DNA of 64,000 nucleotides from positions 164,300,001-164,364,000 of the forward strand of contig OX597814.1 in the NCBI GenBank assembly GCA_951406725.2. The letters run 5' to 3'. The translations under genes and the position numbers were made by a program. Origin of the DNA: Octopus vulgaris. Taxonomy: Eukaryota. Below are positions 2,845-25,295 of this stretch, in pieces; the first letter of the stretch is position 1; every line of letters begins with the position of its first letter. The notes under the pieces were generated by a model. That model made no database searches and was not told the DNA's origin. It was given only the letters and a program-made list of their open reading frames with translations.

Positions 2845-4266
2845 GAAATACGAGGGAGAGAGAAAGGCGGAAATGGTTGTATGGCAGTGAGAAAATATAG
2901 CAATAAATAGAATAAGAAAATGAATATGAAGAAAGAGTAATGATATGTTATAGAACTCGGAGAGAGAAGCAAATGAGGTAAACGTCGCAAGAGTACGCAG
3001 AGAAGTGTTATTAACTAGATTCAACATGTCGCATTATTATGAAGCACAATATGTTCTTGACAAGTGTTGATTTCATTCTGACAAACGCTTTTTAGTAAAC
3101 ATATTTCAGACATTTAGATTACATATCAGGATATCTAATAGTGATATTCATTCACTCAATATTTGGTAAATGTTTATATCGTGTTTTATATTCCAAGATT
3201 ATATTATATTTCTGTGTTCCCATGTACAGGGAAATTATTATATAATTCGTGTAGATTCTAAAACACAATATCCCATATGGTTATTATATTATGATGCTGT
3301 GGGTGAATTTTTGACGTGATTGCCATTCTCAGTCGTAAAGTTATCACAAATTCTATCAATATCTTAAAAAATGAGCATCAACATCACAACTCATCAAACA
3401 TAGTGCTTTCCTCTGAAACCACTACATTTGATCACGACCGCTCAAATAAGTGACGATTCTACTTGTCCGAATGAGAAAAATGAATATTCTTTGATATGGT
3501 TCAGCGCGGCCTTTTCCCGTGTAGTAGTAACTTTATTCTTGATCGATTTATTATTAATGCTATATTATTTAAATATTTTACATTTAGAGACGTAATTGTA
3601 TGTAAATCAATCAAACTTTTGATATTTTACTCTCTTTAGTTTTAATATTAGTCTTAGCCTCACATTCAGTATTGCTATACATGTTTTTTGTGAGTTGTAG
3701 CGTTAGACATAGTTTCTAAGTCGATAGAAATAAAAAAAAAAATCTGTAAGGTGTGTGTGTGTGTGTGTGTGGGGGTTCTTTATGCTGTCTCTTGGCCCGC
3801 TCAAAATAGAAGCCAAATATTCTTCATATCACAGACTTTAGTGTTAGAAAAAAGGACACATTGGTTAATGTAGTCCCGGATGCGTTGTGGTCAGGAAAAA
3901 GGAGACGGCTCGTCTGCTATGCCTTTGATCATAAGTATATTTGATTAGGGCTTTTAGCTAAACAGCTATTCCGCCGCCGCCGCCACTACCACTACTCTCA
4001 CCACCACCACCACCACCATCACCGCTGCCGTTGCCTCTGCCATCACAAACGCCGCTGCCACCACCGCCACTACCACCAACACTTTATTCTTTATTCTTGC
4101 TATTTAAACAAGTAATGTGAGATATGGATGATGTCAATATATTCTTTGTAGTTCAATGCCATTCATCATTGCCAAGTAAATATTACAGAAACATTAATTT
4201 GTCAAGTCCTAAATTTTGTTTATCATTTCTCATCACGTTACTTACTTGTTCTCACTTCCTTTGCAG

Positions 4267-5209
4267 ATACCCATATATGTTTTCCAGCGACATTGGATGC
4301 AAAATCCTCCGCTTTTCCGGGACCTTCACCGTGATTGGATCTTCAATGATTTTGTTGGAAGTGGCTGTTGATCGCTATTGGAAAGTATGCAAACCACACG
4401 ACAAAATGTCTGTTTTGAGTATAAAGATAATGTGTGGAATCGCAGCCATAGTCGGCTTACTCATTGCTGTGCCTTCCATTTTCTACAGCGGTGTAAAACC
4501 CCGTGAGTTCGCCCCGAATTTAATCTCTCAGGACTGTACAGTTACAAACCCCAAGCTTGCTCTGATCTTCTTTTACCTTCTCTGTGTCATTTTCTTCCTC
4601 ATTTGTATCATTCTCGCAGTTCTTTATACGCTCCTCTACCTAGAGGTCCGACAACGAAGACGAAAGATGACCTCTCGTCAGGCTAGTACTGAGACAGAAC
4701 AGATTAGTATCAACGAAAAGGAAAAACAACCAGAATTCCCGAAAACATCCTCTCTGAGAAAATCCATGAAAGAATCGAATCCGAAAAGTCCCATGAGTCC
4801 CAAAAGTCCCATGAGTCCCAAAAGTCCCATGAGTCTAACCAGAGCTAGATTTGCCAGCAGCTTGCGTAAAAAAGTTAGCCGAACAACTCTAATACTGTTC
4901 ATTGTGACATTATTTTTCGTCATTAGTTACCTTCCGTCGTTATTGGTAATGATCATCAAGTACTCAACGTATAGGAGCCGTCGAGGTCGTAAGGAGAGTG
5001 TTACTGTCAAGGTGATTGAAAAACTCTTTTCAAAGTTCTTCCTCATCAACAATGCATGCAACCCGATCATTTACAGTTTCTTGAACCCATATTTCAGAAA
5101 GGAATGCGTGCGCGTGTTTCATAAATTCAGTTGTGGCTTTTCTGCACGCTGTTGCCGCTGTTGTCGTGTTGAACCTGGACATCCTGATACTCTATCTGCA
5201 AGTACCTAA
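4267..5209 (+). CDS. Class A GPCR, coding exon 2 (TM3-TM7, C-tail); orphan peptide-receptor-like
   Basis: Acceptor cttcctttgcag|A completes the phase-2 codon AGA (DLR-YPYM); TM3 Cys, AVDRY, TM6 FVISYLP, TM7 NNACNPIIY, helix 8 FRKE, Cys-rich tail; spliced CDS 1221 nt = 406 aa + stop. Confidence 0.95.
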
Positions 5210-6785: not shown

Positions 6786-7157
6786 ATATAAACCATATTT
6801 TTGCGTCTATGTGTGAACTATGTTCGTATATTTTCTTATCTTCAGTACACACATATAGTACACACACATACGCACACACATATAGTTGCACGCGCACAAT
6901 CACACTCACATACACACAACTACAATCGCATAAATCACATGCAAATGTATACTTGCATAAACACGCTTGCACGCGCACAGTGCTACACACACATAATATA
7001 ACAGAATTTCGAACGATCTTATATTGCAATGGATTTGCAGCCTAGCTGATAAGAGTGTTAAAGTTCTCAGAAAGTCAGAAATGCCATTCACAACAAGGAA
7101 GCACAAGGAGACGGCAACCATCTGTAAAGATGGAACAGTTACTATGTACCTTCGTAC

Positions 7158-7188
<31 letters not shown>

Positions 7189-7252
7189 TGTATGTATGTA
7201 TGTATGTATGTATGTATGTATGTATGTATGTATGTATGTATGTATGTATGTA

Positions 7253-7722
7253 TGCCACTTTTGAGAAATCTCGAGATGCACATGAGAAAGTAAGGAGGGA
7301 TGTCAGGAAGGGCATCGCTGTTACACTTCCAGATGGGAAGGGTCTGCCTATGATGCTGACATGCAGTGTCTGTGCAAGACCCTGCCTCAGTAAAACTCGA
7401 CTCAAGAGTCATTTTCGTAGTCATAAAGCGAGACAGATGAGTGACAACATGGCCACTGGTAGTGGTGTAACACACCATACTAATCATATCTGTCGGGCAT
7501 GTGGAAGAGAGTGTAATTCGGCAGGAGGACTTAAACGACATGCAAAGGTACATGAAGTTCAGTTACAACTACAGCCGGCTATTACCGGTAAAGGTTTTAG
7601 TTGCCAATTCTGTACAAGACATTGTAGATCTTTAGCTGGGCTAAAAAGTCACATTCGATCACAGCACCAGTAACAGTTAAGCTTCGTGCAATGGCCATAC
7701 TCGATAACGGGGGGCAGCCATA
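7253..7722 (+). mobile_element. 5'-truncated RTE-clade LINE 3' end with three C2H2-like fingers, inserted in (TATG)n
   Basis: CSVC...LKSHFRSH, CRAC...GLKRHAKVH, CQFC...GLKSHIRSQH; short 3'UTR gcttcgtgcaatggccatactcgataacg also at 21617-21661 (-); flanked by (TATG)n on both sides. Confidence 0.75.
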
Positions 7723-17259: not shown

Positions 17260-19416
17260 AAGGAAACGGATGGAGCCTCCTCATGGGCTGATTAATGATA
17301 CATCTAGTGATGGCGTCACAATAAAAACATGGTAATTGTGCAATCTGATAATCACTATCTGTTATGAGTGACAATGAAAAAAAAATATTGTGAATAACGG
17401 TGGTAATGAAACTGGAGCCAATGATGGTGACAGTGTTACATCCGGTAGGTTCAGAGATTCTGGTCCGGCCCCAGCCTGTCGATATCCAGAAAGGGACCGC
17501 CACACACGGCGTAGATGGACCAAGCAAATTAATGCTGTGGTCATGGAGTGTTACTACCTGAGCAGCCCGGTAGATGAAAATTGTGCTCAAATTAGGGGTT
17601 ACCGACAACGTGTGTATGATCATTGGAGAGAAAAGGGATTGTTTCAACTCACAGAACAGAGACTATGTGATCAAGTTAGAGCAATAAGAAAAAATGTTCG
17701 TTCACAGAAGTAGAGCTTGAAGCTATCAAAAGACGGGTCATGGAAAATAGCAGCAGAGATAACAATGAAAATACGGTTTTTACTAATAAGAGTAATCTCA
17801 TAGCACAGGAAAGGAGCAGTGGTAGTTTACTTGATGAGAGACATATAGAGGTTCTAAAAGAAGACAATAAAACTAATGGCGATATGACAGATGAACAAAA
17901 GACAATCTATGACAGAATAAAGGTAAGACTACAGGGGAACGATAGCGACCGATGGAAATTGAACCAAGAAACGAAAAATGTCAATGAAATTCTGAAATAC
18001 ATCAGAACAAACAACATCACAGAAACAAATAATTTGATCAAAGCAGCAAGTATGGTTGTGGCAGAAAACGTGGGTGTTGATGTCAAGAAAACGAAACATA
18101 ATGGGAGGGACAAAAGAAAAGATCCATGGTGGAAAAGAAGAATCCAGGCAGGGTTAGTCATGCTCTTGAAGGAAATCTCTGTGTTAGACCGAAAAGAGAA
18201 AGAGGAGCTTAAAAGCGAACAAAAATGCTGGGCGTTGAAAAGGAAGTATAATACTGAAAGTAGTAACAGAGGACCTGAAACAGCACCTTGTTGCAAAGAA
18301 AGCAAAGCTGGTAAGATACGACCAAAGAATGAAGGGTTACCACCAGAATAGGTTATTCAGACTAGATCAGAAGAAATTCTATAAAGAAATGAATGGAGAG
18401 TGCACAGATGAAAAGTTGATAGCAGATAACATTGAAAGTCAAAGGTTATGGAATGACATCTGGAGCAAAGACAAGGAGCACAAGAAGGATGCTGAATGGT
18501 TGCAAGAACTGGAACAAACAGCAGTCTGTCCAAAACAGGCAGAACTAGTCATTTCAGTTAGGGAAGTGAAGGAAATCAGCAAAAAATCGAGCAACTGGAA
18601 GGCCCCAGGACCAAATGGAGTTCAAGGCTACTGGATCAAAAGATTTGGTGAATGCCATGCACGAATAGCTGTGCAATTCAACACCTTGTTAAATGCCGAC
18701 CAAGTAACACCAGAGTGGTTGACATTGGGTAGGACAGCGCTGTGCCTGAGAAACATCGAAAAGGACAATACGGTAGACAATTACAGGCCGATATCATGTT
18801 TACCTCTTATGTGGAAGTTATTGACTGGAATACTTGTAGAGTCAATGTACGAACATCTGGAAAAAATGGAGTCCTGTCACATGAGCTTTTGCAAACAAAA
18901 GTGCGGAGGTACCAAGGATCAACTCCTGATAGACAGAACTGTACTTAGAGACTGCAAGAGGACGAAAAGTAGCTTAGCTATGTCATGGATCGACTATCGT
19001 AATGCGTACGATATGATCCCACATTCTTGGATTATGGAGTGTATAAACCTACTTGGTATTGCATCGAATGTTGAGTGACTGTTTCGAAAAAGTATGGCGA
19101 ATTGGAGGACAGACCTGACAGCATACGGAGAACGTTTAGGGACTGTAGAAATCAGGAAAGGCATCTTCTAAGGGGACTGTCTGTCCCCACTGATCTTTGT
19201 ACTGTGCTTGATACCACTAACACTGATTCTGAGGAAAGCAAAAGCTGGGTTTGTATTCAAAAGCCGCCAACAAAAAGTCAACCATTTGTTATTCATGGAT
19301 GACCTCAAACGTTATGGTAAAGATGAAGCCCAAGTCAGTTCCCTCGTTGATGCAGTGTATACTTTCAGTGTTGATATCAGAATGGAGTTCGAACTGAGGA
19401 AGTGTGGTGTGTTAGT
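17256..19416 (+). mobile_element. Decayed R4/Dong-type non-LTR retrotransposon, 5' part with reverse transcriptase
   Basis: Frameshifted ORFs: RRRWT...MECYY...EQRLCDQVRAI, NWKAPGP, NYRPISCL, GTKDQLLID, WIDYRNAYD-IPHSWI, GIF*GDCLSP, NHLLFMDDLK; truncated after RT. Confidence 0.88.
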
Positions 19417-22324: not shown

Positions 22325-23560
22325 AAAAATATTAGAGTTGAATAAAGAAAATTTGGACCTCAACACTCTCTGCATTAAATAAAACTGGTCCACAATATGT
22401 TTGCAGTGCCAGTACTCATACCAACATTTGGGCTGCTAGATAGGACGCTTGATGAAATCCGAGCCATTGATGTGGAAACCCGGAAGATACTAACCAGCAC
22501 ACATAATTTCCACATAAACAGTGACGTAGACTGCTTCTACCTACAACAAAAACAAAGCAGCAGAAGTTTAACATCGATCCAGACTGCCTTTGAATATTCT
22601 ATCATATCTCTTCGGCAACATCTATTAACCACCAAGTGTCGAAGTGCATCCCTTGACCAAGTTTACATACATGAGGCCGATAATACCATAAGACTTGGAA
22701 GGCAGCTCCTTGAGCAGTATTCCTTGTCTGATAACCTTAAATACATGCTAAAAAAGTCGCGAGCGTATATCAGAGGAAGATCATGAATGGTTGTGTTAGT
22801 AGAAAACTCCGAGATGATAGTAACATTGATCATCAAAGCAGTCTACCATGGACCAACAATCGGATTACTACCACCCAATTTGAAGGGTATGTGATTGCAA
22901 TCCAGAAACAGGAAATATCAACCAAATACCTGATACACAAAAGGGATAGAGATGCAGGAAAATCAACACAATGTGACAACCGATGCAAACTTTGTGGAGT
23001 TAACAGCGAAGATATCACCCACATCATAAGCAATTGCCCGAAGATATCATTGTATTATCTACCAGACAAGATATTGTAGGTAGGACACTGTACAACGAGA
23101 TCCGTCAGAGGGATAACCCCGAGGACAAAGAAATAAGGACTCACAGTATGGTGGAAAGCACAGTCACTCATAATAAAAAGAAATACCAGTGGAATGTCAC
23201 AGTAAAAACCTCAATAAAATGTAAATACAATAGACCTGACATACTGATTTGGAATAGAGAAGAGAAAGTGTACAGTTATGGAAATCAGCTGTCCAGAGGA
23301 TGTTAACATAACGCGAAAAAGAAAATATCTACGCTAAACTGTTGAAAAATTTGCAGTTGCTCTATCCAAATAAGTGCAGGTTTATACCTTTAATTATTGG
23401 GGCACTGGGATATGTAACACTGCTTAAATGCTAATCTTGAGAAATTAGGCTTCTCAAAACTAGAAAGGAGAAAGCTGATTCGAAGGCTACAGATCCAATC
23501 TATCACTGAAACTATAAAAATCTGTAAAACTTTCCAGAAGTTTATCATTTAAGCATATAT
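22325..23560 (+). mobile_element. 3' part of an RLE-type LINE (R4/Dong-like) with CCHC and PD-(D/E)xK nuclease remnants
   Basis: FHINSDVDCFYL, IAIQKQEISTK, CKLCGVNSEDITHIISNC, NRPDILIW, FIPLIIGALG; flanked by (CATA)n. Confidence 0.85.
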
Positions 23561-24258: not shown

Positions 24259-24480
24259 TGTTTGTGTGTCTGTGTTTGTCCCCCCCCAACATCGCTTGAC
24301 AACCGATGCTGGTGTGTTTACATCTCCGTAACTTAGCGGTTCGGCAAAAGAGAACAATAGAATAAGTACTAGGTATACAAAGAATAAGTCCTAGGGTTGA
24401 CCTGCTCGACTAAAGGCGGTGCTCCAGCATGGCCGCAGTCAAATGACTGAAACAAGTAAAAGAATAAAAGAGTAAAAGAG
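24095..24480 (+). mobile_element. SINE family A, 5'-truncated
   Basis: Near-identical to other family A copies; tail aagtaaaagaataaaagagtaaaagag. Confidence 0.88.
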
Positions 24481-24529
24481 TATATATATATATATATATG
24501 TATAAGGGTGGAAAGGAACACACGAGTTG

Positions 24530-25107
24530 ATATATATGAAAAAACAAGTCAAAAATAGAAAATGCTAAGATAATTTTATAGTGAATCTTTCAGTACCGGT
24601 TTCGGTCATTTTGAGACCTTTTCAACTGTAACGATTAAATAATTAAATTTAGAAAAATTAGAAGAAAAGTTTTTTTAAAAGAATATTTCTGTAGTAGTGT
24701 TCAGATATAAGTAGCATTCTGCCTTTCTCTGACTCCCTTGTTTGCACTTGTGTGTTCGAGGTCGTTTTGAGTTCTTGGTAGGATAGGTGAAGAATAATGA
24801 GGCTGATGTGGAGAGGGGGTGGGGAAATCTGGGAATGCCTTATTCTTCACCTATCCTACCAAGAACTCAAAACGACCTCGAACACACAAGTGCAAACAAG
24901 GGAGTCAGAGAAAGGCAGAATGCTACTTATATCTGAACACTACTACAGAAATATCCTTTTAAAAAAACTTTTCTTCTAATTTTTCTAAATTTAATTATTT
25001 AATCGTTACAGTTGAAAAGGTCTCAAAATGACCGAAACCGGTACTGAAAGATTCACTATAAAATTATCTTAGCATTTTCTATTTTTGACTTGTTTTTTCA
25101 TATATAT
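24530..25107. repeat. 268-bp near-perfect inverted repeat (42-nt spacer), Penelope inverted pseudo-LTR-like
   Basis: 24530-24797 is the reverse complement of 24840-25107 with one mismatch seen; bounded by (TA)n. Confidence 0.93.
25009..25046 (+). ncRNA. Minimal type I hammerhead-ribozyme-like motif, U3-A8 variant (mirror copy at 24591-24628 on -)
   Basis: cag-UUGAAAA-ggtc(tcaaaat)gacc-GAAA-ccgg-UA-ctg: stem I cag/ctg, 4-bp stem II, palindromic ACCGGT stem III, GUA triplet. Confidence 0.65.
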
Positions 25108-25295
25108 ATATATATATATATATAAGATAGCTTGTATACACAAAGACGTCTGCATAAAATCCTAGAAACGCAGATGTTTCACCAAGTAAGAACCAAACAT
25201 TTGGATTCACATTCTCTAAATATATTGGTTAGGGTAGTACAGTGAAACATTCCAGGGATTCTCCATTAATGATTCTTGAATTACTAACATTTACA

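Follow-up and report, generated by a model that had tools for sequence, protein, structure and literature searches.

The window analysed here is a stretch of 64,000 nucleotides of the Octopus vulgaris genome. It contains a near-perfect inverted repeat, reported in an initial annotation, whose two 268-nt arms (24530-24797 and 24840-25107) are identical at 267 of 268 positions, the sole mismatch being at 24682, and lie 42 nt apart, with (TA)n tracts flanking the repeat on both sides. The elements of the locus are distributed as follows:

24481..24499, no strand: (TA)n target microsatellite, left flank, read from the sequence
24500..24842, minus strand: 3' end (pLTR) of a Penelope-like element, 5'-truncated and tailed, taking in the 42-nt "spacer"; 99.7% identical to natural copy L031, reference positions 4411-4772
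24500..24529, minus strand: 30-nt "tail", left arm only; in full elements, the stretch between the pLTR and the start of ORF1
24591..24628, minus strand: minimal type I hammerhead motif with a U3-A8 core, predicted cut after 24594; mirror of the right arm
24838..24842, no strand: 5-nt microhomology at the head-to-head junction, which is unique in the genome
24838..25107, plus strand: second 5'-truncated copy, untailed; reference positions 4454-4723
25009..25046, plus strand: minimal type I hammerhead motif with a U3-A8 core, palindromic stem III and GUA triplet, predicted cut between 25043 and 25044; sister copies have U6 fused at the same bond
25100..25124, no strand: (TA)n target microsatellite, right flank, read from the sequence

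The left copy (24500-24842) is longer than the 268-nt arm and the right copy has no 30-nt tail; the "spacer" and the tail therefore both belong to the left copy. The tail is of the 30-40 nt kind that is present at one end only. The (TA)n tract entered by the element is held in the tail of a very high-copy SINE-like repeat (24285-24480). Elsewhere in the window, inspection by eye reveals a single-exon open frame of 362 aa resembling class A GPCRs (4121-5209, plus strand), together with broken LINE-type RT-like frames and a frame with several C2H2-like fingers (17680-19078, 22379-22786 and 7128-7673, all on the plus strand).

The correspondence between the arms and longer repeats was examined by searching the genome with the arm, which gave 1,713 first-look candidates. 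Among the 43 matches listed, 42 are 100% identical after rounding, in agreement with the recent insertion proposed initially. Longer copies (L031, L032, L045, L050 and others) carry upstream of the arm an RT-GIY-YIG open reading frame of roughly 760 aa, in which a CX4CX2C finger precedes the nuclease; in Pfam, RVT_1 scores above the cutoff (E 3e-8) and GIY-YIG just below it (E 4e-4). When copy L031 is compared with itself, the arm appears on either side of the ORFs in the same orientation, and an inverted truncated copy lies upstream. Both arms match the 3' end of this RT and GIY-YIG element colinearly, the mark of an endonuclease-bearing (EN+) Penelope-like element, so that the Penelope link suggested from the arms alone was borne out and the linked ORFs were found. 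By its anatomy the element is an endonuclease-bearing Penelope-like element of Neptune/Nematis type: a CX2-5CxxC finger before a C-terminal GIY-YIG and a microsatellite target are features of the Neptune clade, and the same features are present in Nematis. The available text of PMC8557442 describes the pLTR anatomy of these elements, and the likeness extends to the RT with C-terminal GIY-YIG, the CX4CX2C finger in the linker, the (TA)n target, the pLTR with hammerhead, the inverted 5'-truncated copy, the tail at one end and an ORF1 separated by a frameshift. Relative to that description the foldback locus keeps only two pLTR ends, and the features observed would fit either clade. No named reference Penelope-like protein is present among the 120 protein matches listed, and none of the copies retrieved has both ORFs fully intact.

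ORF1 (about 410 aa, no Pfam match) lies upstream and overlaps the RT-EN frame in the -1 frame (L031:4650-4710, minus strand). This arrangement also occurs in L028, L032, L035, L050, L093 and L095-L097. An in-frame T TTT TTA heptamer is present at the overlap in all 8 spanning copies, a nearby ATG is missing in 7 of the 8, and another family, 45% identical in ORF1, keeps the heptamer in frame. The overlap likely represents a programmed -1 frameshift; a frameshifted ORF1 is noted for Penelope-like elements in figure 1 of PMC8557442. In short copies the 5' truncations form a cluster some 220-250 nt upstream of the untailed end (L210-L265; reference 4476-4502), which may mark transcription start in the upstream pLTR, a reading partly confounded by subfamily divergence. 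Some RT-EN homologues (P0028, P0071, P0075, P0078, P0083, P0088) are filed under bacterial symbiont names and are probably host DNA in those assemblies. A pattern search of metagenome contigs gave 82 matches, and not one could be confirmed.

Judged from its sequence, the foldback consists of two copies of the 3' end of a young autonomous Penelope-like element, both truncated on their 5' side and placed head to head in a (TA)n tract. At least 21 head-to-head pairs were counted by eye among the first 100 motif matches listed. In 29 of 30 head-to-head loci examined, one outer end is tailed and the other untailed while the inner breakpoints differ locus by locus; the thirtieth locus is a local duplication. 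The head-to-head junction of the foldback itself occurs once in the 2.8 Gb genome. Since this junction is found once and inner breakpoints are not shared between pairs, the foldback is, on this evidence, a routine insertion product, that is ordinary transposon debris rather than a mobile unit. The element's protein would prime reverse transcription from both target strands of the (TA)n tract, using for each strand one of two start sites situated about 30-50 nt apart on one RNA; both cDNAs would then stop early and join through microhomology, giving the head-to-head arrangement. Rare variants common to both arms of single insertions (L224, L311, L445/446) fit one RNA template per insertion. According to the available text of PMC11167929, the Penelope protein of Anolis cuts and extends both target strands in vitro and starts reverse transcription at two internal sites bracketing the tail. 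This element (PAc Poseidon) resembles the octopus one in its two start sites around the tail, the extension of both target strands, the AT-rich target and the pLTR hammerhead, whereas it has a C3-G8 core and a single ORF, and in vivo cleavage ends were not found in that work.

The initial annotation had proposed a different origin, namely a non-coding, retrozyme-like element mobilised separately and moving as a unit. The locus contains no ORF, short opposed pairs are common (at least 8 of the pairs counted by eye among the first 100 matches are shorter than 1 kb), and true tandem hammerhead repeats are present in the genome; against these points, the junction is found once, breakpoints are own to each pair, and the arms correspond to a doubly truncated autonomous element, a one-off. 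Neither tandem head-to-tail units with same-strand hammerheads nor a discrete recurring non-autonomous unit is present at the foldback. This origin is largely refuted by the comparison, and we regard it as very improbable. With the non-LTR retrozymes, as described in the available parts of PMC7229834 and bioRxiv 10.64898/2026.07.22.740005, the foldback shares a non-coding locus and a type I hammerhead; it differs from them by having no tandem unit or two same-strand ribozymes, by a unique junction and by its colinearity with an autonomous element. A true retrozyme-like family does exist in the genome (L082:2246-4264, L083, L084, L197, L204), with 359-nt tandem hammerhead units; its insertions lie head to head in (TA)n, as those of the Penelope element do, and it occurs in C3-G8 and U3-A8 versions. 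No link between this family and the foldback's element was found. The family shares only a 10-nt core with the arm, which also argues against the retrozyme-like origin. That the inversion is an assembly or library artefact is extremely improbable: near-perfect palindromes are prone to such artefacts and the junction is seen in the assembly alone, but the arms are distinguished by a single base and by their outer ends, only one of which is tailed, the flanks are different, the arms meet at a microhomology, and the same one-tail pattern recurs in 29 of 30 loci. Four contig sets compared over 24285-25295 displayed neither the junction nor an empty site, the matches being swamped by the neighbouring SINE, and one contig, from a run guessed to be RNA, matches 24512-24749, a match that does not count as evidence of expression.

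The hammerhead motif of the right arm is laid out on the plus strand as stem I CAG (25009-11), U3 to A9 (25012-18), stem II (25019-33), GAAA (25034-37), palindromic CCGG (25038-41), U16.1 (25042), A17 (25043) and CUG (25044-46); the mirror motif occupies 24628-24591 of the minus strand. Each arm thus has the layout of a type I hammerhead with U3 and A8, a 4-bp stem II, a self-complementary ACCGGU stem III and a GUA triplet, and displays the Watson-Crick 3-8 pair, GAAA, A15.1-U16.1, H17 and stems I-III. As claimed initially, two opposed minimal type I hammerhead motifs with U3-A8 cores are present, and the cut predicted 3' of 25043 matches this layout and the equivalent bond at which U6 is fused in sister copies. 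The motif pattern has 1,820 matches in the whole genome and 0 for the reversed control, well beyond what chance would give. Rfam gives both motifs a weak Hammerhead_HH9 score, below threshold (22.9 bits compared to a gathering score of 52, E 0.021); Rfam miRNA matches were discarded as microsatellite and hairpin noise.

Taken by themselves, folding predictions give the active form no advantage. The isolated motif is no more stable than shuffled sequences (z -0.6 to -1.0), the hammerhead fold is lost in a 148 nt context, and the cofold minimum (-23.5 kcal/mol) lies below the active dimer (-20.7 kcal/mol). This is in keeping with the Anolis element, whose behaviour is reported as protein-assisted in the available text of PMC11167929. 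In a transcript through the locus, in either direction, the antisense arm comes first and the predicted duplex reaches about -450 kcal/mol, with one sense ribozyme only, so that the masking by double-stranded RNA put forward in the initial annotation is what the models predict. A locus transcript would fold into this long duplex and would offer no second same-strand ribozyme for a dimer; the foldback copy is probably inert as a ribozyme. Minimal Penelope hammerheads are described as having low activity in vitro (PMC4209133, available text), and U3-A8 as a natural variant active in vitro (PMC3088659, available text); the literature on the kinetics of U3A8 and C3U/G8A gave nothing usable.

The U3-A8 core is a published variant. 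The available text of PMC4209133 describes for the Cercyon hammerheads of Schistosoma a U3-A8 core (about 1,300 matches there), opposed pairs 100-700 bp apart, and a palindromic stem III with proposed dimers, which means that the headline of the earlier description (U3-A8 in Penelope pLTRs, in opposed pairs) had already appeared. The octopus differs in that U3-A8 dominates the ACCGGU-type motifs (the search patterns not being identical), copies are nearly identical, and genomic evidence points to cleavage. As far as that 2014 text goes, foldback anatomy and U3-A8 core are already published, and what is new is the set of fusions at the cut, at the level of the family.

Copies of the family are nearly all U3-A8; the exceptions are 13 copies changed at position 3, another 4 changed at position 8, and one C3-G8 copy. 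This last copy (L081) belongs to an older subfamily and was rejected as a lineage, and a C3-A8 pair at L223 is a local duplication left out of arm comparisons. Compensatory changes in the stems and at 3-8 were judged by inspection from two sources: the stem II pair 10.1-11.1, which is A-U, G-U or G-C across related subfamilies, and the tandem 359-nt family, whose C3-G8 and U3-A8 versions are 89% identical and represent a direct double change. The descriptor table was excluded from this evidence, because its loci had been chosen by core pattern. The interpretation of U3-A8 as a compensatory swap is thus upheld, and covariation is present in stem II and in the 359-nt family, whereas within the family there is almost none at 3-8 (the single C3-G8 copy). 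In other families U3-A8 has 3,084 matches (control 2) compared to 110 for C3-G8 with the same stem III, giving for ACCGGU-type motifs 1,820 + 3,084 U3-A8 versus 110 C3-G8, a rough ratio since the patterns differ. A young related Penelope family (L150-L179; about 98% identical, 1,133 candidates, RT-EN about 55% identical to that of the foldback's element) has a U3-G8 wobble core with an unpaired U before the core; it was amplified anyway, and cleavage may be dispensable. Hammerhead mutants of the Anolis element also transposed in vitro (PMC11167929, available text), in line with this. Repeat family L411-L420 has by eye an apparent A3-U8 core with a U inserted in GAAA, and in L372 a U6 end is joined to this family at the predicted cut. 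In hammerhead repeat families L476-L486 and L488-L498 (801 and 557 candidates), most retrieved copies have CCGA, not CUGA, at positions 3-6.

Cleavage of element RNA would leave copies beginning at the cut, and all 65 matches in which A17 is missing ahead of the predicted 3' product were examined. Unrelated sequence stands directly upstream in 31 of them and the element continues, with point changes or small deletions, in 34; at a control position six bases upstream (n=30) the corresponding numbers are 5 and 25. The excess at the cut (31/65 versus 5/30) has a binomial p of 1e-5 on arms, in a test that uses one control position, counts paired arms twice and misses junctions whose foreign base is A. 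By our reading of the true ends, 3 of the 31 (L267, L274, L283) and 3 of the 5 control cases were dropped, and four pairs are the two arms of one insertion; after these corrections about 24 independent insertions are found at the cut, compared to 2 at the control. Among the 31 foreign upstream sequences, 2 are 3' ends of U6 snRNA according to Rfam. The foldback's own youngest subfamily (566 copies) has 3 copies beginning at the cut, two of them inversion junctions, and none of the U6 or foreign-hammerhead fusions found belongs to it. All fusions with U6 and hammerhead halves are in older sister subfamilies, which agree with the youngest one in core, stem II, stem III and the proximal part of stem I and depart from it in distal stem I.

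The U6 fusions were characterized from both sides. Of 19 matches from a targeted search, 8 are arms (from 7 insertions) that carry U6 ending in exactly five T and joined to the first base after the cut, and the other 11 are chance matches, neither U6 nor element. Rfam places U6 above cutoff in 5 of 18 loci scanned, while L382 and L396 keep a short U6 end only; when a free gap of 0-30 nt was allowed, 4 of 4 U6 junctions were exact. In these sister loci a U6 3' end with its oligo-U is joined directly to the 3' part of a retroelement. From the other side, the genome contains 215 U6 3' ends, and among the 100 listed, 50 loci were examined (30 automatically, 20 hand-picked as not SINE-like); most listed ends are followed by SINE-like or gene-flank sequence. 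Among 52 distinct sequences after U6 ends, 3 clearly match the reference element, and all three map to the 3' product, two from base 1 and one from base 14 (a diverged copy, visibly starting at the cut); one further weak match is a simple repeat. We then made a prediction: for four U6 partners of unidentified kind, relatives were retrieved and a hammerhead was sought at the junction. A hammerhead ends exactly at the U6 junction in 3 of the 4 families (one C3-G8, one U3-A8 and, by eye, one A3-U8 with a U inserted in GAAA), and the fourth partner, L376, has no clear hammerhead. In L367 the U6 junction lies at the cut site of another U3-A8 family. Seven U6 3' ends about 1.1-1.4 kb apart form a tandem array (L336-L342; C1:139421211-139431293) that is probably a true U6 gene cluster, and U6-U6 head-to-tail fusions are present in L348 and L357.

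Other ribozymes also provide partners. In five insertions the Penelope cut is joined to the 5' half of another hammerhead, which stops at that hammerhead's own GUC. Uncut copies of two donor families run on into their own stem I strand; 5' halves of families L476-L486 and L488-L498 are fused to the Penelope 3' product in L276, L286/287, L291/292 and L326. The same fusion is present on both arms in L384/385, L364, L372, L286/287, L291/292, L296 and L315, one arm being tailed and the other not. Rfam did not recognise the foreign hammerhead halves in the fused loci. The hammerhead cut is also where SINE fragments (on both arms in L296) and a fragment of ORF1 are attached (L293, L296, L306, L266).

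When a hammerhead cuts, its 3' product begins with a 5'-OH and its 5' product ends in a cyclic phosphate. Some element RNAs would be cut after A17, giving a 3' product with a 5'-OH, and a ligase, likely of RtcB type, would join this product to RNAs that bear a terminal 2',3'-cyclic phosphate; the chimeric RNA would then be reverse-transcribed and inserted. The 3' product retains both RT start sites, so the ligated chimera would still be a substrate. In the available text of PMC6789731, mature U6 bears five U and a cyclic phosphate and is joined by RtcB to 5'-OH RNA before LINE-1 retrotransposition, and in that of PMC7229834 RtcB circularises hammerhead-cut retrozyme monomers in vitro. The chimeras of U6 and LINE-1 (PMC6789731) resemble those of octopus in that U6 with five U is fused to the 3' part of a retroelement and retrotransposed, with RtcB chemistry. 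The octopus chimeras differ by their acceptor, a Penelope-like RNA, by a junction fixed at the scissile bond where that of LINE-1 is variable in the text available, and by the use of 5' halves of other ribozymes as donors. It is likely from these junctions that minimal Penelope hammerheads cut their own RNA in living germ-line cells. We infer cleavage with fair confidence, and the identity of the ligase with less.

The fusions could also have arisen without RNA ligation, the hammerhead cutting in vivo and the reverse transcriptase, once at the 5' end made by the cut, jumping to U6 or a further cleaved RNA at its 3' end. Template jumping is a proposed route to LINE-1 chimeras (PMC11838501, available text), the fusions are known as inserted DNA with no ligated RNA observed, and a few of the partners joined there are fragments of SINEs or elements, which need not end in a cyclic phosphate (L266, L293, L296). 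Nevertheless, the same partner is joined at the same bond on both arms of an insertion, which favours a chimeric RNA as the simpler template over a single jump, and the identified partners are RNAs expected to carry cyclic-phosphate ends; we therefore consider jumping unlikely. Improbable in our opinion is a vestigial motif, with 5' ends gathering through a stall of the reverse transcriptase at stem I or a nearby protein nuclease. The weak predicted fold agrees with it, as do the low in vitro activity of minimal Penelope hammerheads (PMC4209133) and the zero read ends at the site in Anolis RNA-seq (PMC11167929), in the text available for both. A stall or a nuclease would however ignore hammerhead numbering, whereas the junctions are base-exact between H17 and N1.1 in five families with differing sequences, and the foreign hammerhead halves end at their own H17.

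Taken as a whole, it is very probable, from the sequence comparisons, that the locus consists of two truncated Penelope ends joined together, and that the family's U3-A8 pLTR ribozyme likely self-cleaves in vivo in element RNA and is probably silenced at the foldback. Cutting in vivo by minimal hammerheads of animal Penelope elements is stated as open in the available texts, with an "absence of in vivo evidence" (PMC4209133) and a function "still unclear" (PMC8557442); the fusions, which in five families fall base-exactly on the scissile bond, are sequence-only evidence for cleavage of a kind that any assembled genome can provide, by listing what follows its U6 retrocopies. In the full-text literature outside subscription papers and supplements, no report of U6-Penelope fusions at ribozyme sites was found. 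With moderate confidence, we propose that minimal Penelope hammerheads, including U3-A8 and apparent A3-U8 forms, cut in the germ line, and that their 5'-OH products are ligated to U6 and to the hammerhead 5' halves of other elements before insertion. As part of the same proposal, U6 retrocopies would tag active cut sites in any genome, and this swapping of sites would give unrelated RNAs a Penelope 3' end, possibly the origin of new retrozymes.
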